From the IMG/VR virus record IMGVR_UViG_3300000115_000005: DNA of 64,000 nucleotides, one strand, 5' to 3'. The position numbers were made by a program, and so were the translations under genes. This document shows, piece by piece, positions 2,635 to 54,362 of this stretch. The notes under the pieces were generated by a model. The model was not told the origin of the DNA, searched no databases, and worked only from the letters and a program-made list of their open reading frames with translations. This stretch comes from a virus. Position 1 is the first letter of the stretch. Each line of letters starts with the position of its first letter.

Positions 2635-3078
2635 TTAACTATATATTTTAATCCAGCCGGTCTGATTATTTGCTTGATAAGCATTTTCATCCCACTGGTA
2701 AGACTCTGAATTTGCTACATTAGCATCAGATGGCATTTCATATGGTGGATTCCAACTAAAAGTAGTATTACTAACAACCCAACTATTCCATTGATTATTA
2801 GCTCTTGGTGATACGAAAGCATCTTTACCTGTGCCATTTACATTAGCTATATAATCATAACCTACACCAGCATAATTGCCTCTTAATGGCGTACCACCAT
2901 CTGGTAGATATTCACCATTAGCTGCTACTCCATAATGTACGTTCTGTGCTGTGTTATATGATGTTTGTATCCATCTATTAGCAGGACCAACTGACCCAGA
3001 ATTTATAAAATCTTGTTCAGCTACTATAACACGAATGACTGTGTTTGTATCTGGATTCACCTCTGCGAAATGTGACAT
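2635..3078 (-). CDS. conserved phage protein that accompanies Gly-rich fibre genes
   Basis: MSHFAEV..VIRVIVA..WIQTSYN..RGNYAGVGY..WDE motif family. Confidence 0.65.
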   Translation of the reverse strand: MSHFAEVNPDTNTVIRVIVAEQDFINSGSVGPANRWIQTSYNTAQNVHYGVAANGEYLPDGGTPLRGNYAGVGYDYIANVNGTGKDAFVSPRANNQWNSWVVSNTTFSWNPPYEMPSDANVANSESYQWDENAYQANNQTGWIKIYS

Positions 3079-4977: not shown

Positions 4978-7900
4978 GTTAATGCAATAGCTCTAAGGTT
5001 TTTAACCGTAGGCGGTTTAGCTGTATTATCAGTAAAGAAAACAATCTTAATTGAGAAAAATCTAAATGTATCAAAAGTCGCTCCTGCTGAAGAGTATGTA
5101 ACATCTTCTGCCATATATTCACAATCATAATATTGTGTTATACTTTGACTTGTAGTAGTAGGTGTCATTTGATTCATTTCAGTATAAGGTAAATCATCAA
5201 AAATTGTAGACTCATCTGATTCAGATTGTATTCTATAAAATACTTTGATCGAAGATCCTTCAGGTAAATTTTTAGATAATATTACTCTCAATGATGTTGC
5301 ATCAAAACCTTCTGTTAGAGTAACTTTTCTAGTGATATATTTAGATGTTGCACCACCGCCACTACTGGTTTCAGGTCTTGCTACCACTGCTGTATTAGAA
5401 CTAGAATTGACTAGATTTTCTACAAATACAAATCTAGCTCTATCTAATTCAAAAGTTGGTGTAACATCAGCATTTGTAGATGACATTATAATTTGTAAGT
5501 TTGCATCATTACCGTTTTTATATTCTTTTCTATTTTCTAAGTAAGTATCTGAATTGGGTAGTGTTGATACATAAGCGTCCAGACCACTAGCACCAGCTGT
5601 TTTAAGGCCTAAATTAAATGATACACTTGTCTTATCAGAAAAGGTTTCAAATGGTGCATTAATTCTCACTAAGTCTACATTTTGATCTGGTAATATATTT
5701 TTCTGTGGTTCAACGATTGCCGTAAAGTTACCTGATGTATCAAACTGAGCTTGATGAATTATAAAACACAAATCAGATTCTTGAGCTGCGGTCCATGTTG
5801 AGGCATTTTGTGATTTAAACAAAGATCCCATATATGGTTGTGAAACAATTGATTGTCCAGTATCTAATCTATTTTGACCAACTGTTGCAATATAAACATT
5901 GTACTCAAATGAACTTGTTAAAAGAACCATTGAATATTGATCTGGTTCTAAGAATACTGGTTTATCGAAAGTAAATCTCGTTGGTTCTGGAATATTAGGA
6001 TCACTTGGTATAACTACATCACTAGGATTCTTTGATACTTTTGACTTAGCAATTATAGTTTCAGATGGGTAACCATTTAAAACTTTTCTTATTTCAAAGT
6101 GTACAGGTAAAGTAGCATCTTTTGATGCAAAGAATATATCAACTGAAGTTATGAATATACCTTTTGGATTTGTAAACTCATTTACAAAGAATGTTTGTGC
6201 AAGTGGGTCTACACCTAGTGGACATTCATTTTTTCCTTTAAATTCAGGTGAGGCCTCGAAGATTGTAGTTAAACTAGCTGAAAGGGTTCCTGGTGTGAAA
6301 GCATCTATCTCACCATTTTCTATTCTTTCCATATAGTATTGCATACCAGCTTTATCTGGTTTACGACCTAAAACAGCTGAATAAGTATCTCTAATTATTT
6401 GCTCAGATATACCAAAGGTTGCATCAGTAACATCACTATCACCAGCACCACCATTTGCAGGTAGTTCTGCTCTAGCTTCAGCAACTGTTTGACAATTTGG
6501 TGTCTTTTTATCATCATCCTCCTGAAAAGCACATTCTGTTGATACAGGCGTAACTAGTGCAGGTGGGTCATTTCGTACCTCTACTACTGGTGGTATTATT
6601 CTTGATTTTGGTGTGCCAGAATAATATCTAGTTTCTGCAAAGGTTGAGAAAACATTAGGTGATGCGATAGAATCGGAGAAAAATATCTGATGTTCACCAG
6701 CTGCAAATTGTCGATTAACTGCCTCATTATTTGGTATAACTAATCTACCTTTTGCAAAACCTTGATCGTCAGAAATAATTAAACATTTTTTAGGAGCCGT
6801 TTCAAAAGCATTTGTTGTTGTATTAAATGCTCTTAATCTATCTGATACATTTTTACCATCTAAGAAAGCATGAACTTCTGTATTTGGCCTGTAACCAAAT
6901 ATTTCAAAATCAATATTCTCAGCTGACATATAGTAAAAAATTCTATCTGTTTCTGTTTTTGTTGATTGACTTGATGCTTCTTCAGCTGAAGTTGTCGTAG
7001 AAACTTTTGCACCATTTTTATCATAGTATGTATATTTTCTTGTAGTATCATTATTAAATGATAAAAGATCCCATTCACTCCATACTGAGCCTTGAAAATT
7101 TACTCCAAATTCGTAGTTATCTGAATTACCATCACGATTACTTACTACAATAGGTCTAGAATCAAAGTCTGCATAATTAGTTACATCTGCTGCAAGTTTA
7201 ACATAACCTACAAATGAAACAACATTAAATGGGTTTATATTAACTGAAGTTGAAGCAACATTTTGAGCACTATATACTTGCTCGGTAAATGGTAATGTAA
7301 TAGTATTACCCGTAACTTTTGCTGTTGTACCAGCTGCTATTACAGTTGCATTTGTACCATTTGCTTTGAATCTTGGATGTAATATTTGATTACCATAATC
7401 AATAGAACATTTGTAATCATCATTTAAAACATCACCTACACTATGGCCTTTAAAGTCATCAACTAAGAATCCATTGTTTATAAGTTGAACATTATTATTA
7501 CTGAAAAATGTTGAAGTAGCTATTTCAGATTCTAATAAATTAAGAGCTGTATAATATTCTACTCTCGATAAACGATCATCAATACCACCAATGTCTTTCA
7601 TTGTATATCTTTTATTTTTTACAATATCAACTGTTACGTTACTTGTTTGAAATGTAAAAGGTGGAAATGTCAATTTATATAAAGACATAGAATCAGGATC
7701 ATCTAATGGTGTAGGTGGGTTATTTAAGGCACTATCACCTTCTATAACTCTAAATTTACCATCAAATCCTAAAACAACTTTATCAACTCTACTTAGATAA
7801 TAATTTAAATCAACATCTGCTGATCCAACTCTACTATCAACAATTTGATTTCTTGTAAATGTCATTGCTGTATTACTATAAACATTTGAAGCTTCAACAT

Positions 7901-26026: not shown

Positions 26027-27666
26027 TGGCACTTAAAGACCTTTTAGATAACGTAGAAAAAAATACCTCCGAAAAAGAAAAAGTATTAAAAAGTATTGGT
26101 GAAAACTTTATGGCTCTCTCTGGTATAGCCAGAGATTTGAATGTCGCAGGTCAAAATCTAGCAATAGTTTTAGAAGGTAGAGATGTTGACCCATCTAAAA
26201 AACAAGATGCTTTCTTTTTAAAAGAAGAAGAGAGAGAGAAGAAATTAGAAGTTGAATTAGGTAAAGATGAAGGTGTAACTCAAGTAACAAGTGGTAAAAA
26301 GAAAAAAAGTTTCTTTGAATCATTAAAAGATATGTTAAAACCTGGTAAAATATTTAAAATATTAGTTGGTGTTTTAGCCATCGGTGGTCTTATGGCAGTT
26401 GTCTTTAAAAATTTTAAAGATGAAATAATGGAAACAATGAAAGATATTCCTAAAATACTTAAAGAAAAATTTACAGAATATACTCAAAAAATAAAAGACG
26501 TTTTTATAAATGCAGTTGAAAGTTTAAAAGAAAAAGTTAAGCCGTTATATGAAGATTTTGCTGAGAATGTAGGTGAGTTTTTTAGTAAAATAGGAGAAAG
26601 AGTAACAGCAATGTTTTCTAAGGTTGTTAATTTTTTTAGCCCTGTTGTAAATTTACTTAAAAAAGGGTATGAATTAGTAATGTCTGCAATAAAAAAAATT
26701 CCTTTTGCCGATTTAATTATACCAAAAACTGAACAAGAAAAAAAGAAAGAGGTATCAGAAAGACGAAGAAAAAAACTTAGAAAACAAGTCATACGAGAAT
26801 TAAAAAGAGAGGATAAATTAATAGATGTATCTTTTTTTGAAAAAATTGGAGCTAGAGGTGAAGATGCAAAGATAAGAGCCAGATTACAAGAAGAAGCAAA
26901 CCAAAGACTTATTGAATTAAAACTTGAAAGAAAACTTAAAGCAATTGAAGAGATACAAGAAGAATCTGGTGTAAAAGAACCAAAAACAAAACCAACACCT
27001 ATAACTGAAGATCCTGCAAAGAAAAAAACGGTTACAAAAATAATTGGTGATGAAGATATTAAAGCAATGATTAAACAACACGAAGGTTACCGTGATAAAC
27101 CATATAAAGATTCAGAGGGTTTATGGACCATTGGTTATGGACATTTAATTGGTGATGGTAAATCTTTACCCGATAGTATGAATAGAAAATTTAGTAAACA
27201 AGAAATTGATGAAATGTTTGAAGAAGATTATGCTCATCATAAAAAAATAGCTGAGAGAACACCTGGTTATAATAAAGCTAATTATACTGGTCAAGCAGCT
27301 ATGATAGATTTAGGTTTCAACATGGGTAAATGGTGGCCAGAATGGCCAGTTACATCTAAGGCTTTGAGAGAGGGTAATTTTACAGCAGCTGCAAGAGGTC
27401 TTGAAGATAGTCAATGGTATGGACAAGTTGGTATAAGAGCACCAAAAATAGTTGCAATGATTGAACAAGGTGATATAAAAGGACCAACTGGTGATGATAT
27501 TGCTTCAGGTTCATCATCAATTAGTGCGGCTCATAGTCAACAAAGAAAACCAAAAACACCTATGATTGTAAACAATATATCAAACAATAATAGAAGCCTT
27601 AATGTGCAAAATGATGTTATTGCAAAAGATAATTCTAGTATAAACCCATCAGAAAATTACGCCTAA
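26026..27666 (+). CDS. tape-measure-like protein with C-terminal T4-type (GH24) lysozyme domain
   Basis: HEGYRDKPYKDSEGLWTIGYGH, MIDLGFNMG, DSQWYGQVGIRA. Confidence 0.85.
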   Translation: MALKDLLDNVEKNTSEKEKVLKSIGENFMALSGIARDLNVAGQNLAIVLEGRDVDPSKKQDAFFLKEEEREKKLEVELGKDEGVTQVTSGKKKKSFFESLKDMLKPGKIFKILVGVLAIGGLMAVVFKNFKDEIMETMKDIPKILKEKFTEYTQKIKDVFINAVESLKEKVKPLYEDFAENVGEFFSKIGERVTAMFSKVVNFFSPVVNLLKKGYELVMSAIKKIPFADLIIPKTEQEKKKEVSERRRKKLRKQVIRELKREDKLIDVSFFEKIGARGEDAKIRARLQEEANQRLIELKLERKLKAIEEIQEESGVKEPKTKPTPITEDPAKKKTVTKIIGDEDIKAMIKQHEGYRDKPYKDSEGLWTIGYGHLIGDGKSLPDSMNRKFSKQEIDEMFEEDYAHHKKIAERTPGYNKANYTGQAAMIDLGFNMGKWWPEWPVTSKALREGNFTAAARGLEDSQWYGQVGIRAPKIVAMIEQGDIKGPTGDDIASGSSSISAAHSQQRKPKTPMIVNNISNNNRSLNVQNDVIAKDNSSINPSENYA

Positions 27667-27690
27667 AAAAAACCCCGCCGAAGCGGGGTT
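27665..27690. terminator. intrinsic terminator between convergent genes
   Basis: A8-ccccgc-cgaa-gcgggg hairpin; U-tract on minus strand downstream of gp32. Confidence 0.9.
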
Positions 27691-27714: not shown

Positions 27715-28596
27715 TTAGTTATTCACTAAATCTTTAAAATGATTCAAATCATCTTCTTCAGTTACTTCTGAAGTATCAAACGTAGATGCTTCATCATCTG
27801 TAATTACATTTGTTTCAGCCTTAGTTTTTGGTAAATCAGTACCATCAATACCTAAAACTTTATCTAATCTAGCTTTGAGTAAATCATAAGATTTGAAGTT
27901 ACCAGGAGAAACAAACTCTTTTAAAGAATACTCTTGGTCGAAAAGCTTTTTCAACTTATCTTCATCACCATCAAATAAAGCATTAGGACTTGCAAATTCA
28001 GACTTATCATAATTACGATAACCTTCTACTTTGCGAATCTTAAGCTTGAAGTTAGCACCTTCCCAAAAGTCAAATGGGTTGATTGCTGTTTCATCTTGAA
28101 ACTCAGGATTCATTGCTTCTGAAAGTTTATCAAATATTTTCTTACCAAATTTATAAAGAAAAACTTTACCTTCATTCTCTGGATTAGATGGGTCAGAAAC
28201 GACCATAATATTTGATATGTGAGAAAGCTTACGCTTCTGTTTTCTAGCAATATCTTTGTTTGCTTCAATACCAGAATTCCAGAGAACTGAATTGTATTCA
28301 CTTACTGGATCTTTTTGGTTTAAAGTAGTAAGGGAGTTTTCAATGTACCAACCACCTGGACCTTGAAAACCATGTGAGAATAATCTTACCCATGGCAATG
28401 AATCATCACCATCTAATGGTGGTGCAGGTAAAAAACGAATAACTGCCATACCATTACCAGATTTATCTACTGTTGGTTGCCAGAATCTTGTATCATCTCT
28501 GGAACCAGCTTCAGCTGGTGCAGCTGAAGATTGTATCGCTTTATTTAGCTTAGCTAAAGAGTTGCGATCCCTCTTGAGGTTTGCAAAACTGCTCAT
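27715..28596 (-). CDS. single-stranded DNA-binding protein gp32
   Basis: DTRFWQP..DKSGNG.AVIRFLP, HGFQGPGGWYIEN, NPFDFWEGANFKLKI, acidic tail. Confidence 0.97.
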   Translation of the reverse strand: MSSFANLKRDRNSLAKLNKAIQSSAAPAEAGSRDDTRFWQPTVDKSGNGMAVIRFLPAPPLDGDDSLPWVRLFSHGFQGPGGWYIENSLTTLNQKDPVSEYNSVLWNSGIEANKDIARKQKRKLSHISNIMVVSDPSNPENEGKVFLYKFGKKIFDKLSEAMNPEFQDETAINPFDFWEGANFKLKIRKVEGYRNYDKSEFASPNALFDGDEDKLKKLFDQEYSLKEFVSPGNFKSYDLLKARLDKVLGIDGTDLPKTKAETNVITDDEASTFDTSEVTEEDDLNHFKDLVNN

Positions 28597-28681: not shown

Positions 28682-29230
28682 CTAAAATTCGGTTTCTTGC
28701 CTTGAAGAAAATGAAATTGGTGTTATAAAGTTCACTTGTTCAAATGCAAATGTTCTGTGCCCTCTCATAGCAGTATGAAATTCTCCTGCACGATTTGGGT
28801 GGAAGTTTCCAACACTTTCTTTTTTACCTTTACCTGGATACCCACCTTCTTTTGTACCATGTAAATGAGCTTCATCAGAATCATGTGATTTGTGTAATAC
28901 AGAATCTTGTCCATATTTTTCACCATGTTTCTTGAGAAAACCTTTTAATTCACCACCATCTTTACCTTTCTTACCAACAACTAGATAAGAATGTTCATCA
29001 ACTGGTCTTGCTTGTGGTGTGCCATGATTTTCGATATAACGGCCCTTTACTCGTATGAAGCCGTGACCAGCTTTACGAATATCTTTCTCTAAAGATTTAT
29101 TTCTAGATTTATTTTCACCAGATGTATTCTCACCACGGTGAGCAGTAATCATACCAATGTTTCTGCCTTGAGTGTGTGAATGTACTCTGCTTAAGCTAGA
29201 TTCGTTGTATAGTGTTTTAAACTTTTTCAT
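28682..29230 (-). CDS. conserved basic protein, candidate internal head protein
   Basis: MKKFKTLYNE N-terminus; ITAHRG..N..RN..L..YGQDSVL core; TATAAATA at 29237-29244. Confidence 0.55.
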   Translation of the reverse strand: MKKFKTLYNESSLSRVHSHTQGRNIGMITAHRGENTSGENKSRNKSLEKDIRKAGHGFIRVKGRYIENHGTPQARPVDEHSYLVVGKKGKDGGELKGFLKKHGEKYGQDSVLHKSHDSDEAHLHGTKEGGYPGKGKKESVGNFHPNRAGEFHTAMRGHRTFAFEQVNFITPISFSSRQETEF

Positions 29231-35533: not shown

Positions 35534-35663
35534 ACCTTACTTCCTCCTTAAAATTTTTGTATGTTGATTTATCATGATGTTTCATTTTCTCATGTTTTAC
35601 AACTTCAGATTTTTGTGTAAGTTTTGTTCTTTTGGTTTTTAATATTTTTTGTTGACTAATCAT
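35523..35663 (-). CDS. hypothetical 46-aa basic protein
   Basis: ATGA overlap with clpP stop; fills gap. Confidence 0.45.
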   Translation of the reverse strand: MISQQKILKTKRTKLTQKSEVVKHEKMKHHDKSTYKNFKEEVRYEN

Positions 35664-36220
35664 TTGTGCCTTCCTAAAATGTGATCTATAACTTTATTCT
35701 CAAATGCTTGTTGAGGTGACATATAAAAGTCACTAGGTAATAAAAATTTTTTATTAATTAATGTTTTATCCACACCAGCATTTTCTAGTATATTATATGT
35801 TCGATCTTTAATACTTTCGTTTTCTTTCACCCAAGATTTTATGTCATGATATTTTGCATTGATTTCATTTGAAAATTCATGACACATTAAAGTTGTTAAA
35901 GGACAAGAGTATCTATGGCCTTTGGTACCTGATATAAGAATATAAAAAGCAGCTGAACAAGCTGAACTAACTGCTATGGTCTTTACGTTATGTGGTGATG
36001 TATACATCATATCAATAATACCAAAAGCGTCAATCAAACTACCACCATCTGAGCTAATGTATATCGACAATTCTTTTTTTATTTTTTTATCTGTATTGTG
36101 GTAAATTAACCAGCGTATTAATTCATTTGCTGAATCTGAAGTTATTTCTCCGTTTAGAAAATATATATTTCTTTCTAATAACGTCTTTTCAATGTCATCA
36201 TTATCTTTATCTTTTGACAT
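35660..36220 (-). CDS. clpP: ClpP-like protease subunit
   Basis: RNIYFLNGEI, IYISSDGG, ACSAA (Ser), LMCH (His), DFYMSPQQA..VIDHI. Confidence 0.85.
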   Translation of the reverse strand: MSKDKDNDDIEKTLLERNIYFLNGEITSDSANELIRWLIYHNTDKKIKKELSIYISSDGGSLIDAFGIIDMMYTSPHNVKTIAVSSACSAAFYILISGTKGHRYSCPLTTLMCHEFSNEINAKYHDIKSWVKENESIKDRTYNILENAGVDKTLINKKFLLPSDFYMSPQQAFENKVIDHILGRHK

Positions 36221-37145
36221 TCTTTTTGTGCCAATCGTATGCTGTTCGTATTATCTCAACAATATCATAATTTGGTCGAAAATTTAAAATATCACTAGCC
36301 TTTGAAATATCTGCGACTAAGTTAGATGGGTCACCTTTTCTTTTTTTACCTATTTCGTATCTTATATCTAACCTGCAATAATCTCTAATTAGTGCTATAA
36401 TTTCTTTTATAGAATACCCAGCACCAAACCCTAAATTAAAAGTGTCAGACTTACCACCTTTATTAAGGTAATCTCTAGCACTTAGATGTGCTTTTGCTAT
36501 ATCAGTTACATGAACATAGTCACGAACACAGGTGCCATCAGATGTATTATAGGTATCTCCGTTTATCACAAAGTTATTTATTTTATTAAAAATTACTGGT
36601 ATTAGATGAGTTTCTGGTTCATGACATTCACCCATTTCACCATCTGGATCTGCACCAGCAAGATTGAAAAAACGAAATATTACATGATTCAGCCCAGAAT
36701 CACGAATAAGACTTTCAGCAGCTATTTTGGTATTTGCATATGGATTATTAAACGCTATATCGTCAGTTTCTTTTAGAGGTCTATCTTTTGCCTTATAGAC
36801 ACCAGCACTTGATGAATAAACTATATTTTTTACACCAAATACCTTCATAAACTTAATTAACTGTATAGTACCATTAACATTATCTTCCCAAAATTGTATA
36901 AGTTGGTCATACGATTCACTAATTTCTATTCGACCAGCTAAATGAAAAACCGTATCAACACCAGATCGTAGAATCGGTACTAATTCTCTTGGTTCTTTAC
37001 TAAGGTCTTGAATAACTTTTCTGTGATAGTATTTACAGTCAGTATTTTCCTTATCTAAACATATAACAAAATGACCAGCTTGATTTAATTCTTTTGCTAT
37101 GTGTTTACCAAGATAACCTGCACCACCTGTAACTAAAACTCTCAT
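36207..37145 (-). CDS. galE: UDP-glucose 4-epimerase
   Basis: TGGAGYLG, YxxxK (YANTK), GECHEPETHLIP, DGTCVRDYVHV. Confidence 0.9.
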   Translation of the reverse strand: MRVLVTGGAGYLGKHIAKELNQAGHFVICLDKENTDCKYYHRKVIQDLSKEPRELVPILRSGVDTVFHLAGRIEISESYDQLIQFWEDNVNGTIQLIKFMKVFGVKNIVYSSSAGVYKAKDRPLKETDDIAFNNPYANTKIAAESLIRDSGLNHVIFRFFNLAGADPDGEMGECHEPETHLIPVIFNKINNFVINGDTYNTSDGTCVRDYVHVTDIAKAHLSARDYLNKGGKSDTFNLGFGAGYSIKEIIALIRDYCRLDIRYEIGKKRKGDPSNLVADISKASDILNFRPNYDIVEIIRTAYDWHKKNVKR

Positions 37146-37645
37146 GAGTCCCTAAGTGAAGTAATTGGTTTTTTAACTGGCCACCAAATGTTGTGAGCTT
37201 CTTCATCATTCCAACGAATTGTAAATTGATTATTATAATTATGATAAGAGTCTAATTTATAACTAAACACAGCATGGTCAGACATAACAACATGACCATT
37301 ACCAAATTTAGGTGGTATTAGAACCTGTTTTTTATTTGCATCTGATAATGTGAAAGATGCCCATTGTTTATACTGAGGTGACTCTGGATCATTATTTAAA
37401 ACAACAAGGTAAATAGAACCATATAAACATGAAACAAGTTTAGTTGTACAATCATCACCGTGTATACCACGCAAAACGTGTTTTCTTGATGAACTTATAC
37501 TATCAACAACCCAATCTCTTACTACTATGGTTTCTTCATACACCTTTTTATTAAAAGACTCTATATTGTGTCCTCTAAAATCTTCAAATATAGCTGGTGG
37601 TGTAAGTACAAAAACATTATTTAATTCTGTGAAATCAACTTGCAT
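37142..37645 (-). CDS. rmlC: dTDP-4-dehydrorhamnose 3,5-epimerase
   Basis: FEDFRG, VLRGIHG, KLVSC..G, IPPKFGNGH, IRWND. Confidence 0.88.
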   Translation of the reverse strand: MQVDFTELNNVFVLTPPAIFEDFRGHNIESFNKKVYEETIVVRDWVVDSISSSRKHVLRGIHGDDCTTKLVSCLYGSIYLVVLNNDPESPQYKQWASFTLSDANKKQVLIPPKFGNGHVVMSDHAVFSYKLDSYHNYNNQFTIRWNDEEAHNIWWPVKKPITSLRDS

Positions 37646-37654
37646 AATATATTA

Positions 37655-38449
37655 TCACTTTATAATTGATATTTGTGGTCCAATGTGAGCTATTGTATCA
37701 ACTTCTTTTGTCCAAGGATATTTACCATTATATCTTTTTTTGTTTTGAGAGTTACCTTTATCAAAGAAATCTTTACCAACCGAATTGGGATTAGACTCAC
37801 CTTTACCTGTATTATTATCTAAGCGATAGCATAAGGTATGTTTATTCGTACAGGTATAATTTGGATATTGTAACTTCAAGTTGTGGAAAAATTGTCTATC
37901 AGCACCCCATTGCCCGTACCAAGAGTGTCCAATGCTAGTAGCAATATCACGCTTAACAATAAAAGATGAGGTGTCAATGTGATATACTTGATCATCAAAA
38001 TATACAGGCCATTTACCAAGGGATTCGCAATTATCTTCACATACAAACTTTTCATTCTGATCATAAATTTTTCGTAATGAGTACGCCCAATCTGCTCCAT
38101 CTTTTATTTTCTCCACTAATCGTTTTACATGATCTGGTTCAAACCAGTTATCTTCATCAAGATAACATATTAAATCAGCATTTACAAGAAAAGAACAGGC
38201 AGAATACGCTCTATGCCCATACCAACCTTTTCCAACATTATCTTGTAGTGATATTGTTTTAACTGGTATTTTAATTTCTTTTTTTAATCTTTCTCTATTT
38301 CCTATAGCCCATTCACAGGCGGATTTATGTTCTTCACCATCTATAAAAACATAATGAACTATGTCAAGATACTCTTGATTTTGTATTGATTCTAAACACG
38401 TTGTCAAACAATCTTGACCTATCGTTGGTGTAACTACGGCTACTTTCAT
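37655..38449 (-). CDS. glycosyltransferase family 2
   Basis: VAVVTPT, YLDEDNW (DxD). Confidence 0.85.
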   Translation of the reverse strand: MKVAVVTPTIGQDCLTTCLESIQNQEYLDIVHYVFIDGEEHKSACEWAIGNRERLKKEIKIPVKTISLQDNVGKGWYGHRAYSACSFLVNADLICYLDEDNWFEPDHVKRLVEKIKDGADWAYSLRKIYDQNEKFVCEDNCESLGKWPVYFDDQVYHIDTSSFIVKRDIATSIGHSWYGQWGADRQFFHNLKLQYPNYTCTNKHTLCYRLDNNTGKGESNPNSVGKDFFDKGNSQNKKRYNGKYPWTKEVDTIAHIGPQISIIK

Positions 38450-38763
38450 AAATATTTTTTTCCTTTATCATCAATATAAATGATTTCATCACTTGGATAC
38501 CAACCTCTAACTTTGATTAGCAAATCCGTGACTGAATCATCATCATCATTAAAAAAATTAACCCCATTTACACTATCTATTTCTCTTACCACCTGAGCTC
38601 TATCATCCCACGGTATATGTGAGTGCTTTGAGTTTCTTTTCAACCAATTATCAGAATATATACCAACTATCAAATATTTACCATGTTTAGCAGATTCATC
38701 AAAAAAAGTAATATCAGCTGATGTGAGTGGATTAAATGCACCTGCAACAACAACTATCTTCAT
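38446..38763 (-). CDS. cytidylyltransferase-like protein (degenerate HxGH)
   Basis: VAGAFNPL..LIVGIYSDNWLKR..R..V fold pattern. Confidence 0.7.
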   Translation of the reverse strand: MKIVVVAGAFNPLTSADITFFDESAKHGKYLIVGIYSDNWLKRNSKHSHIPWDDRAQVVREIDSVNGVNFFNDDDDSVTDLLIKVRGWYPSDEIIYIDDKGKKYL

Positions 38764-44606: not shown

Positions 44607-44923
44607 TTAAGAAACTTTTTCTTCTTCTCATAGTCTTAAGCTTTAGTGTAGGTGCGGTACCACCACCAAGAGGTGTTGATCCTGTTGAAGCAAAAAAACG
44701 TGAAAGAATTAATAAGATACAAAGAGAGAAAGATCGTAGAGATGATATGTGGTGTTATATCAAACAGAAAAAGAAATTATCTGATGGTGGGTTTCAATGT
44801 ATATACACTTGTCCAGCTAGATGGAAAAATGGTAAAAGGCCTGAACCACATATAGAAAGTAATAATGTGGGACCAGGTTTTGGTTGCCCTAGTTCAATGA
44901 ATGTTTTAAGGAGAGGTAGATGA
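44606..44923 (+). CDS. secreted Cys-containing protein, non-ATG start
   Basis: Frame IKKLFLLLIVLSFSVGA..WC..CIYTC..GC..RRGR fills the gap exactly; GGAGG at 44592-44596; ATGA overlap with cytochrome c. Confidence 0.6.
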   Translation: MKKLFLLLIVLSFSVGAVPPPRGVDPVEAKKRERINKIQREKDRRDDMWCYIKQKKKLSDGGFQCIYTCPARWKNGKRPEPHIESNNVGPGFGCPSSMNVLRRGR

Positions 44924-45291
44924 TTAGGATAATAAATGCAATTGTAATACCAATTTGGTTTATACTTTTTATTTGGATCTTTACATCAACACAAGTATTA
45001 GCAAGTAATAGCGTTCAAGATACTAGCATTGGAGACAAAGTAGCTGGTGAAAAAAGATACAATGTAAATTGTAAGAATTGTCATGGACCTGCCGGTAAAG
45101 GTGCAGCCAGTTATCCTAAAATATCAGGTAAAGAAATGTCTTATATAAAAGATAGATTAGAAACATATAGAAGTGGTAAAGAAATAGGACCTAATTCAGC
45201 TTTAATGATAATGATGGCAAAATCATTGACTGATGAAGAAATAAATAATTTAGCTGCGTATCTTAAAGATGCAAAATATATGGTGAAATAA
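44920..45291 (+). CDS. class I c-type cytochrome (c553/c554-like)
   Basis: Signal peptide, CKNCH heme motif, YPKI.G, distal Met region, L.DEEI..LAAYL. Confidence 0.92.
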   Translation: MIRIINAIVIPIWFILFIWIFTSTQVLASNSVQDTSIGDKVAGEKRYNVNCKNCHGPAGKGAASYPKISGKEMSYIKDRLETYRSGKEIGPNSALMIMMAKSLTDEEINNLAAYLKDAKYMVK

Positions 45292-45635
45292 TGAAACAAT
45301 TATTAGTAATGTTTACAATGTGGTTTGTATTATGTAGTGGTTTAATTTTTATTGCTAATGAAGCAACAGCGGCTTCATGTGGAAGTCCTTTTAGTGGTAA
45401 TCCACAAGCACCAAGATGGGATTTAATTAAAGCAGAAATTGACAAAGCAAATAAACATGAATATTATAGACCAGTACAAGTAAGAGAAAATATATTAGTT
45501 CATGTTTTATATGATGAAGAAAGAGAATATATTGTAATAAGTAAAACTGCTTCAATGTTAGTTCCTGAAGCTAGAGAACAATTCAAAATAGCTGTAAGAG
45601 AATGGATAAAAAAAGGAATCGAATATGGAAGTTAA
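45291..45635 (+). CDS. hypothetical exported protein
   Basis: N-terminal hydrophobic signal. Confidence 0.6.
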
Positions 45636-46029
45636 TCAAGAAACATTACAATTGATGGATCCTTTAGCAAAAATGCCAGAACAAGAAATGCCGGTTCCAT
45701 TTGTACTTGCTGAGAGTGCAGCTAAAAAAGTAAAAGAATTAATTAGGGAAAGTGGTGAAGAAGCTTCTCGAATGATGTTAAGAGTATTTGTACAAGGAGG
45801 AGGATGTTCTGGATTTCAATATGGCTTTTCTTTTGCTGAAGAGATAGAAGAAGATGATACTAAAGTAGAAAAGTTTGGTGTCACTATGTTAGTAGATAGT
45901 ATGAGTTATGGTTACTTGGTTGGTTCAGAAATCTATTATAAAGATGATCTTAATGGGTCACAATTTGTAATAAGAAATCCAAACGCCAAAGCAACTTGTG
46001 GGTGTGGTTCTAGTTTCGCTGCCGGTTAA
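45625..46029 (+). CDS. erpA: A-type Fe-S cluster insertion protein
   Basis: [39 protein letters not shown]. Confidence 0.93.
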
Positions 46030-46249
46030 CAACTTTTAGAACATCTCTGTATTGGGTGAAGTGTAATTCATTCTCAACAAAATCTAAGAACTCACCAACA
46101 GTCCAATGGCTTATTGACTCACATTGTTTTTTATAATGCACAAATACAGTTAAGTTTTCTATATCTGAGATTGTTCTACTTATAGTAATCTTATCGTCAC
46201 CGTTTAAATTATTTTTAAGTATTGTAATATTTCTATCTCTAATGTTCAT
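46010..46249 (-). CDS. hypothetical protein
   Basis: TAATG-coupled to permease gene. Confidence 0.5.
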
Positions 46250-47208
46250 TAAAATCCATTCGGTACTATTATGTAATGTATTGAAAGAACTATGCCTACT
46301 GAAGCACCTAATCCAATCATCATCTTAAAAAAATCTTTAGTGATAATAGGAAAGACTACTTTAAATTTACCATTACCTGTAACTGTAGCCATTGCAAGTT
46401 CACGACCACAAAGTAACCCAACAAATACCCATGTTGTTGACATTGGTATATCGTTTAGCTCTTTGAAAAACCATAATATAATAAAGTAAACACCATCAAT
46501 GATTGTTGCACTTCTTACATATCTAGTATTATGTTTTGATAATACTATTTGTTGAATTTTACCCCCACCTTCACGAAACATAAAACCTAAACCCATTACA
46601 AATAATAATGATATAGCAACCATTAAGTCCCATGGAATCACTCTAGGAAGGAATACAGCTATGTTTGCCATATCATGACCAAGCCATGTAAACCATAAAC
46701 AACCTGTGGTAAACCATTGGCCTATTCGCCAGTACCTTTTATGTTCTTCCTTGACATGATCAAACTCATTAAGTATTTTTGAAACTATAATCCAAATAAG
46801 ATAGGCTGCTACAGCTGCAACTGCATATCCCATCATAGACTTCATCAACATTTTTTCTAATACAAATGACGAGGCAAAAGCTGACAATACGAGAAAACTT
46901 GTACTAACTGGAATACCTACTCTGGTTAGTATTAATAGGATACCTGGTGCCATTGCATGATACCATTGAATCTCTTGAAAAGGTATTTTGTTTAATCGGC
47001 CATAACTTATATCACCACCATTAGTATACCAACCAAACCATAATGTATAAAGTAATACTGCACTTGCAAATCCCCAAAGAATTTTCCAATTAAATCTTTC
47101 TTTATTAGAAGCAATCCATGTTCCAAGTGTTTGAACAGAATCATTTGCAATTACAGCGTAACCAGCAAAAATAAAACCTACTGCCATCCAGAGAGTCATA
47201 ACGTCCAT
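46249..47208 (-). CDS. multi-pass permease, PiT (phosphate/sulfate) family-like
   Basis: ANDSVQTLGT, PVSTS, HDMANI, PMSTT resemble duplicated PiT signatures; many TM helices. Confidence 0.7.
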   Translation of the reverse strand: MDVMTLWMAVGFIFAGYAVIANDSVQTLGTWIASNKERFNWKILWGFASAVLLYTLWFGWYTNGGDISYGRLNKIPFQEIQWYHAMAPGILLILTRVGIPVSTSFLVLSAFASSFVLEKMLMKSMMGYAVAAVAAYLIWIIVSKILNEFDHVKEEHKRYWRIGQWFTTGCLWFTWLGHDMANIAVFLPRVIPWDLMVAISLLFVMGLGFMFREGGGKIQQIVLSKHNTRYVRSATIIDGVYFIILWFFKELNDIPMSTTWVFVGLLCGRELAMATVTGNGKFKVVFPIITKDFFKMMIGLGASVGIVLSIHYIIVPNGF

Positions 47209-47222
47209 ATTGTTTCTATCCC

Positions 47223-47246
47223 AAAAAAAACCCCGCCTAAGCGGGG
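47223..47246 (-). terminator. intrinsic terminator downstream of pqqA
   Basis: ccccgc-ttag-gcgggg followed by U8; nearly identical to terminator at 27665-27690. Confidence 0.9.
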
Positions 47247-47264
47247 TATCGTTAGCTAATAATA

Positions 47265-47342
47265 CTACTTAGATGCAACGTACATTGTGATTTCAAATCC
47301 AAATCTTAAATCAGTCGCTGCTGGCTTAGTCCATTTATTCAT
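47265..47342 (-). CDS. pqqA: pyrroloquinoline quinone precursor peptide PqqA
   Basis: Not in ORF track. [25 protein letters not shown]: W-x-x-P..DLR.GFE-x-T-x-Y with E-x-x-x-Y; AGGAGG RBS; own terminator. Confidence 0.93.
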
Positions 47343-47442
47343 AATGCCTCCTATATTAAATGGGTTATATAATAATTTAGTAAATGTTAGTGATATATGA
47401 TATAAAGAAAATCATGAGTTTCATATGATCTTAGTATAAACA

Positions 47443-51957: not shown

Positions 51958-52034
51958 TGGTCGGAGTGAAATGATTTGAACATTTGATCTCCTGCTCCCA
52001 AAGCAGGCGCCTTACCAGACTAGGCCACACTCCG
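51958..52034 (-). tRNA. tRNA-Pro(TGG)
   Basis: cggagtg/cactccg acceptor, cctgc-tt-TGG-ga-gcagg anticodon arm, GTTCAAAT T-loop, encoded CCA. Confidence 0.95.
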
Positions 52035-53834: not shown

Positions 53835-54362
53835 AGTGAGAGTTTTATTTAAAAAGTCCACTACTCTCAAAGGACTCGCACATTTGGTTTTTTAAAGAAA
53901 CCGACCACGCACCGTGGGAAAACTTCTTGTTATTAGAGTTTATTCTTTCTGAAGAAAAACCCTGCCATGATAGGCTAAAAACGACAATAGGCTTGAGTTG
54001 TTACTACTGTTCTGCATTTGCGTTTTACAGAAGCTCTTTGTATCAAGGTATCTCGGATATCGCACATTACCTCTGACCCTTAAAATTAGATTCGTCTATA
54101 AGGGGATTTGAACCCCCATCTTCAAAGCGATCAACTTTGACGTTTTAATAGCTAAAGAACCACTATTCTAGGAAGTATTACTACTTCATCATTAAACTAT
54201 ATACAACGTTTTTTTACACCGAGTTTTCCCTATCATGTTTCGGATAGATGCTTGATGCTGAATCTAATACAATCATAACAACTCAAATTCTTAAAATCTT
54301 TATAAATTAAGACTGATGCACCAGTTCTATTCTCTTACGAGGTAGACGTTTTCTTAATCTAT
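53835..54362 (-). ncRNA. large structured non-coding RNA with embedded tRNA-like domain
   Basis: No ORF of 60 aa or more; upstream promoter; nested and crossing 8-11 bp perfect inverted repeats; tRNA-like arms at 54093-54208; 3' H-type pseudoknot. Confidence 0.7.
54093..54208 (-). other. tRNA-like element (GAT in anticodon-type loop) with ~40-nt D-loop expansion
   Basis: TA-GTTT-AAT...AAAC D stem, TCAAAG-TTGATCG-CTTTGA arm, GGGGG-TTCAAAT-CCCCT T arm, bulged acceptor, no CCA. Confidence 0.65.

Follow-up and report, generated by a model that had tools for sequence, protein, structure and literature searches.

The stretch of viral DNA analysed here, called the window below, comprises 64,000 nucleotides of IMG/VR record IMGVR_UViG_3300000115_000005. 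On its minus strand it carries a stand-alone gene for PqqA, the precursor peptide of the cofactor PQQ, with a ribosome-binding site and a terminator of its own. The gene and the features discussed together with it are the following:

47265..47342, minus strand: pqqA coding sequence, 25 codons plus stop, with matches to PF08042 and TIGR02107
47347..47352, minus strand: Shine-Dalgarno sequence AGGAGG, read from the sequence, 4 nt upstream of the ATG
47353..47442, minus strand: A+T-rich intergenic leader of 90 nt with weak sigma-70-like candidates, conserved in the relative L347
47223..47247, minus strand: intrinsic terminator with a 7-bp G+C stem, the 4-nt loop UUAG and U8
46249-47208, minus strand: multi-pass membrane protein of 319 aa, directly downstream of the pqqA terminator
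45625..46029, plus strand: Fe-S cluster insertion protein ErpA of betaproteobacterial type (NF010147, 167 bits, cut-off 117)
44920..45291, plus strand: secreted mono-haem cytochrome c, c553-like (PF00034, 47.6 bits; CKNCH at residue 51)
27715-28596: gp32 (PF08804, 155 bits)
27665..27690, minus strand: twin terminator behind gp32, with the motif CCCCGC-N4-GCGGGG

Both curated PqqA models recognised the short ORF at about twice their cut-off, with 41.9 bits for Pfam PF08042 (cut-off 21.1, E 9e-11) and 39.6 bits for NCBIfam TIGR02107 (cut-off 20), the latter being an equivalog model for the PQQ precursor peptide. This is the same minus-strand ORF that a preliminary description of the DNA had read, from the letters alone, as an unannotated PqqA of 25 amino acids, and the model scores bear that reading out. 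The peptide falls within the size range of the family (about 20-40 aa), its leader contains Trp4 and Pro7 (W-x-x-P), and the E-x-x-x-Y pair, whose two residues end up in PQQ, is represented by Glu17 and Tyr21 (E-I-T-M-Y). The W-x-x-P motif of the PqqA leader is recognised by PqqD, and all positions needed for processing (W, P and R-x-G-x-E-x-T-x-Y) are present in the window peptide. Linkage to pqqB-E was not found, and such linkage is a property of the operon and not of the PqqA peptide family. No RNA family was detected at the locus in Rfam (best match RsmY with 18 bits, gathering score 57).

The expression signals named in the preliminary description, an AGGAGG ribosome-binding site and a terminator nearly identical to that of gp32, were likewise recovered. 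The former lies at 47352-47347, and most viral pqqA copies have a similar AGGAG or AAGGAG site before the gene. The terminator hairpin begins 17 bases past the pqqA stop and differs from its gp32 counterpart by a single loop base. The motif CCCCGC-N4-GCGGGG occurs twice in the 64-kb window, with no occurrence expected from shuffled sequence. Since the twin stands behind gp32, the pqqA cassette uses the phage's own type of signal. In L021, L285, L083, L116, L011 and other viral contigs, pqqA is also followed by terminators consisting of a hairpin and T-run, although these are different ones. The promoter was left unassigned because sigma-70-like matches near pqqA were at background level (42 found versus 37.4 expected from shuffles).

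T4 core genes are located on both sides of pqqA. The T4-type genes of the window are gp32, gp59, RNase H, baseplate genes gp5, gp6, gp8, gp25 and gp53, and a gp26-type gene; further genes encode ClpP, sugar-nucleotide enzymes and purC, and Pfam scans of the larger ORFs returned T4 baseplate, replication and accessory genes only. The window has a G+C content of 33.8%, and third-position G+C is 0.32 in its pqqA, compared with a median of 0.8 in bacterial copies with the same core. The position among T4 core genes and the phage-like codon composition therefore argue against contamination; together with the gp32-type terminator they confirm the earlier claim that the gene is integrated in the phage. 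An artefact, in the form of contaminating host DNA, a chimera of the assembly or an ORF arisen by chance, might be suspected for so short a gene in an uncultured assembly, but we consider its probability negligible in view of the E-value of the PqqA match (9e-11), the phage genes on both sides, the terminator common to gp32 and the recurrence of the cassette at this position in L347 and L285, two independent contigs.

Similarity of this phage to GenBank phages was limited. Its gp32 was at best 59.6% identical, to cyanophage homologues, a megablast search with the pqqA region gave no match at the DNA level, and tblastn with a glycine-rich window protein of 901 aa gave none either. The replication module includes, at 35660-38763 on the minus strand, genes for the ClpP protease, an NAD-dependent sugar epimerase/dehydratase, a dTDP-4-dehydrorhamnose 3,5-epimerase, a family-2 glycosyltransferase and a cytidylyltransferase. 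A tRNA-Pro was found at 51958-52034 and, close to it, a weak match to the tRNA model at 54093-54206 (minus strand; 30.5 bits, gathering score 29), which at 114 nt is longer than a normal tRNA.

Searches by tblastn with PqqB, C, D and E yielded no match in the window and none in 127 viral loci, while the same queries matched 101 of 120 bacterial pqqA loci; the earlier statement that pqqB-E are missing from the window is thus correct. The window and five related fragments lack genes for a PQQ-dependent dehydrogenase. Many of the surrounding ORFs belong to no known family, which would be compatible with a different use of the peptide, as precursor of another modified peptide or as a signal handled by phage enzymes. 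We judge such a use to be very improbable, since both curated models identify the peptide as a canonical PqqA and no gene of a radical-SAM, PqqD-like or peptidase kind was detected in the vicinity of pqqA in the window.

The gene downstream of the pqqA terminator allowed a comparison of the site between related phages. The 319-aa membrane protein had no match in Pfam, PHROG or NCBIfam and none by tblastn among GenBank phages, and it has 428 relatives in IMG/VR with 82-93% identity; the protein collection contains over 7,800 homologues, none of which bears a name. It is thus a very abundant marine phage gene whose sequence is kept while its flanks are completely different. Among the best 80 of the 428 contigs with this gene, pqqA was present within 4 kb in seven, and at the site of the window in just two of them, L285 and L347. 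In the other 78 the DNA homology with the window begins 9 nt before the membrane gene, exactly past the pqqA terminator. Judged from these alignments, the pqqA cassette is accessory and dispensable. The gene might accordingly be viewed as a neutral passenger, a tiny host fragment that was caught at a hypervariable junction and has been retained although the phage gains nothing from it, which would fit the break in homology with 78 of the 80 related contigs and the absence of pqqA from most contigs with the neighbouring gene. Several observations speak against this explanation. Comparison of the window with L347, L285 and L021 gave 4.5-9 synonymous differences on about 14 sites and 2-3 non-synonymous differences on about 52 sites, and this contrast among four relatives, which were found independently, argues for selection. 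The gene furthermore has its own ribosome-binding site, a phage-type terminator and a codon composition adapted to the phage, and pqqA occurs independently in myo-, sipho- and podovirus lineages. We therefore consider a neutral passenger unlikely. Over 124 distinct viral pqqA sequences pN/pS was 0.2, a value with a downward bias, as the search pattern itself holds nine codons constant; W and P, which the codon pattern does not demand, are invariant in all 124. Taken at the level of sequence, the phage pqqA is an intact gene under purifying selection in a bona fide phage genome.

Copies of pqqA in other phages proved to be numerous. A tblastn search of GenBank phages with the window peptide returned 12 records, ten of which are phages. 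Nine of these are Methylophilales phages (four Melnitz records, Venkman, P19250A, MEP301, MEP401 and MEP402) and the tenth is a spring-water podovirus. All Methylophilales phages returned by the search carry pqqA. In all ten copies the ORF is intact, usually with a ribosome-binding site, and is either unannotated or hidden under a call on the wrong strand. The remaining two records, labelled Acinetobacter phage MD-2021a (CAKLQF020000010.1, our L007, and CAKLQH020000055.1), were rejected as bacterial chromosome contigs with pqqABCDE, fur, ppk and entB; mislabelled contigs of this kind in the phage collection can yield false phage matches. IMG/VR was searched by a degenerate codon pattern, in which nine codons including those for Glu and Tyr were fixed, and gave at least 120 contigs with pqqA; the W-x-x-P leader was in frame in 120 of the 120 listed. 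The gene is nearly always overlooked by gene callers, even in cultured phage-host pairs, and is not mentioned in the papers describing the cultured Methylophilales phages.

Viral PqqA has been reported before. Coutinho et al. 2020 (Microbiome, PMC7678222) described T4-like phage contigs from Lake Baikal, with about 35% G+C, that encode both PqqA and methanol dehydrogenase, predicted a Methylophilaceae host and proposed that the viral pqqA acts as an auxiliary metabolic gene in the PQQ-dependent oxidation of methanol. The novelty implied in the preliminary description therefore does not hold. Its remark that no characterised phage example was known is valid for experimentally characterised phages and invalid for published metagenomic ones, and its reading of a stand-alone phage PqqA stands with regard to identity, phage residence and gene architecture and fails, in view of the 2020 report and the many phage copies, only as a claim to novelty. 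The same publication states that P19250A has none of these methylotrophy-related genes. In the P19250A genome (KX815270.1, L004) we observed an unannotated pqqA at 2998-3069 that encodes a peptide identical to that of the host group.

The peptide type of the window differs from the one that prevails in Methylophilaceae. Four Methylophilaceae genomes contained three to six pqqA copies each, all of a single type from which the window peptide deviates at 5 of 22 core positions. The best agreement among the bacterial PqqA sequences retrieved, 18 of 22 core residues, was with types of other Burkholderiales, and the D-L and E-I positions of the window peptide are common to other Betaproteobacteria. 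A genome scan for that core gave at least 120 matches, and almost all of those with a genus or family name belong to Burkholderiales or Rhodocyclales lineages; the listed matches also included two MAGs labelled Bifidobacterium and a few labelled at higher rank only. The exact window peptide was absent from a collection of 15 billion proteins, and an exact look-up of ten viral peptides of non-Methylophilaceae type gave no named bacterial match. Assignment of the host to a family was attempted with two markers and rejected for both, as the peptide shares 17 of 22 core positions with Methylophilaceae and 18 of 22 with other Burkholderiales, and ErpA is 57-65% identical to its counterparts in all betaproteobacterial genomes tested. 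A streamlined marine betaproteobacterial host, and not SAR11, is suggested because pqqA and ErpA are of betaproteobacterial type and the window has a low G+C content. A marine betaproteobacterium of low G+C content with a C1 metabolism is the probable host, although the phage peptide is not of the Methylophilaceae type. OM43 bacteria possess the PQQ pathway and XoxF, and the phage peptide may ultimately serve a methanol dehydrogenase of the XoxF type or a quinoprotein of the GSDH type.

The peptide's divergence from every bacterial PqqA retrieved and its absence from the protein collection could also indicate a decoy or inhibitor, which would occupy the host's PqqD and PqqE without yielding PQQ and so lower host cofactor synthesis or redirect radical-SAM capacity. 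PqqE is a radical-SAM enzyme. The window encodes a SAM-lyase-family protein (28682-29230, minus strand; PF23780, 44.6 bits) that adjoins gp59 and gp32 and that, if active at the same time, would deplete the SAM needed by PqqE; its presence could point to interference with SAM chemistry. A decoy nevertheless seems quite improbable, more so than a neutral passenger, as W, P and R-x-G-x-E-x-T-x-Y have all been kept in the window peptide and the cytochrome c, formate dehydrogenase and ErpA of its relatives point to a support of oxidation and not to its blocking. Moreover, several phage peptides are letter-identical to the PqqA of Ca. Methylopumilus, Methylotenera or Methylophilus, which fits a putative role as substrate rather than inhibitor.

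We favour instead, with a probability of roughly 0.7, the interpretation that the phage pqqA is a functional auxiliary metabolic gene that feeds the PQQ enzymes of the host and keeps periplasmic oxidation going during infection. In PQQ biosynthesis PqqE, acting with PqqD, cross-links the Glu and Tyr of PqqA, and every molecule of PQQ uses up one peptide (cited in PMC7678222). As one peptide is destroyed for each cofactor, an extra, phage-driven supply would keep PQQ-dependent dehydrogenases running. In the proposed sequence of events pqqA would be made as a small monocistronic message with its own ribosome-binding site and phage-type terminator, and the host chaperone PqqD would bind the 25-residue product at its W-x-x-P leader. 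Assuming a complete host PqqBCDE pathway, PqqE would then form the cross-link between Glu17 and Tyr21, and PQQ would be completed by peptidases of the host together with PqqB and PqqC. PQQ-dependent periplasmic dehydrogenases and the electron flow through c-type cytochromes could in this way persist after host transcription declines, and the continued oxidation would pay for phage replication. To our knowledge no cofactor other than PQQ is made at the expense of a ribosomal peptide, so that a gene of 75 bases is enough for a phage to increase the supply.

Supply of the component that is consumed stoichiometrically is the best reading of the gene's role. It fits the selection pattern as well as the three to six pqqA copies per Methylophilaceae genome, which suggest that precursor supply matters in these bacteria. 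Points that count against it are the absence of the exact peptide from the 15-billion-protein collection, the 78 of 80 contigs that do without the cassette, the lack of a PQQ dehydrogenase in the window and the five related fragments, and the SAM-lyase-family gene in the window. Phages of methanol-oxidising bacteria commonly carry the gene, and their hosts form a link between algal production and the release of CO2.

Some genes in the vicinity of pqqA give an indication of a wider function. The cytochrome c553 and ErpA genes are located 1.2-2.4 kb from pqqA in the window. The mature part of the cytochrome is 82% identical to bacterial cytochromes whose genes stand, in two contigs, directly upstream of a GSDH-family gene (PF07995), the family comprising soluble dehydrogenases that depend on PQQ. 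The source of these cytochromes bears the Atlas label Pseudomonadota. Identity to Methylophilaceae cytochromes was only 31-34%, and no homologue was found by tblastn in 50,697 GenBank phage records. The predicted c553 of the window is similar to the cytochrome that partners a GSDH-type quinoprotein in bacteria and is a possible electron acceptor for a PQQ enzyme; its donor differs from the betaproteobacterial-type source of pqqA and ErpA. Named homologues of ErpA were restricted to Betaproteobacteria (64-71% identity) and include a marine MAG and a marine fosmid. ErpA is present in L285, L347 and L021 and absent from the 78 contigs without pqqA at the site. Among the best 80 of the 428 contigs, L285 and L347 are the only ones to share ErpA, the small ORF at 44652 and the signal-peptide protein at 45291 with the window, and the cytochrome c is shared by L347 only. 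L021 (IMGVR_UViG_3300030202_003475), which has the most similar pqqA among the first IMG/VR matches listed, carries on one strand at 5474-7488, in this order, a di-haem cytochrome c gene, pqqA, a terminator and the full-length gene of an NAD-dependent formate dehydrogenase (NF005750, 636 bits); ErpA is encoded at a distance of 2 kb. This set looks like a compact set of genes for C1 oxidation.

Such linkage raises the possibility that pqqA belongs to a portable kit that serves a respiratory branch dependent on PQQ, and this kit would mark the switch of an abundant group of uncultured marine T4-like phages to a PQQ-making betaproteobacterial host other than typical Methylophilaceae. The kit may combine the PqqA precursor with a cognate cytochrome of the c type, with ErpA as a possible maturation factor for PqqE, an enzyme with three clusters, and, in relatives, with the NAD-dependent formate dehydrogenase. 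We advance this extended interpretation tentatively and regard it as doubtful. If it were true, pqqA could serve as a host-range marker among marine myophages. The linked gene set suggests that phages reinforce a whole periplasmic oxidation branch and not one step. What is new in the window is the divergent peptide type and the linked cytochrome c and ErpA, with the formate dehydrogenase in a relative, an association that is suggestive rather than demonstrated.

Compared with known systems, the window pqqA agrees with its bacterial counterparts in length, in the W-x-x-P leader, in the R-x-G-x-E-x-T-x-Y core and in the terminator after the gene. Bacterial copies with a window-like core, however, mostly stand beside pqqB-E (101 of 120) and have G+C-rich third positions. 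Orphan pqqA genes are also known from Methylophilaceae, where they are multi-copy and dispersed. The cultured Methylophilales phages share with the window an intact orphan pqqA with a ribosome-binding site and no pqqB-E, in their case of 23-24 codons, and Melnitz is, like the window phage, a Kyanoviridae-type myovirus; their peptides, unlike that of the window, are of the Methylophilaceae type and in some cases identical to the host PqqA. The Lake Baikal phage population VP_266 comes from fresh water, has a predicted Methylophilaceae host and encodes methanol dehydrogenase, whereas the window has no quinoprotein dehydrogenase, a peptide of non-Methylophilaceae type, and cytochrome c553 and ErpA nearby. 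Common to both is a stand-alone PqqA gene in a T4-like uncultured phage, and the window pqqA is accordingly a further example of the kind published in 2020 and not a new discovery.
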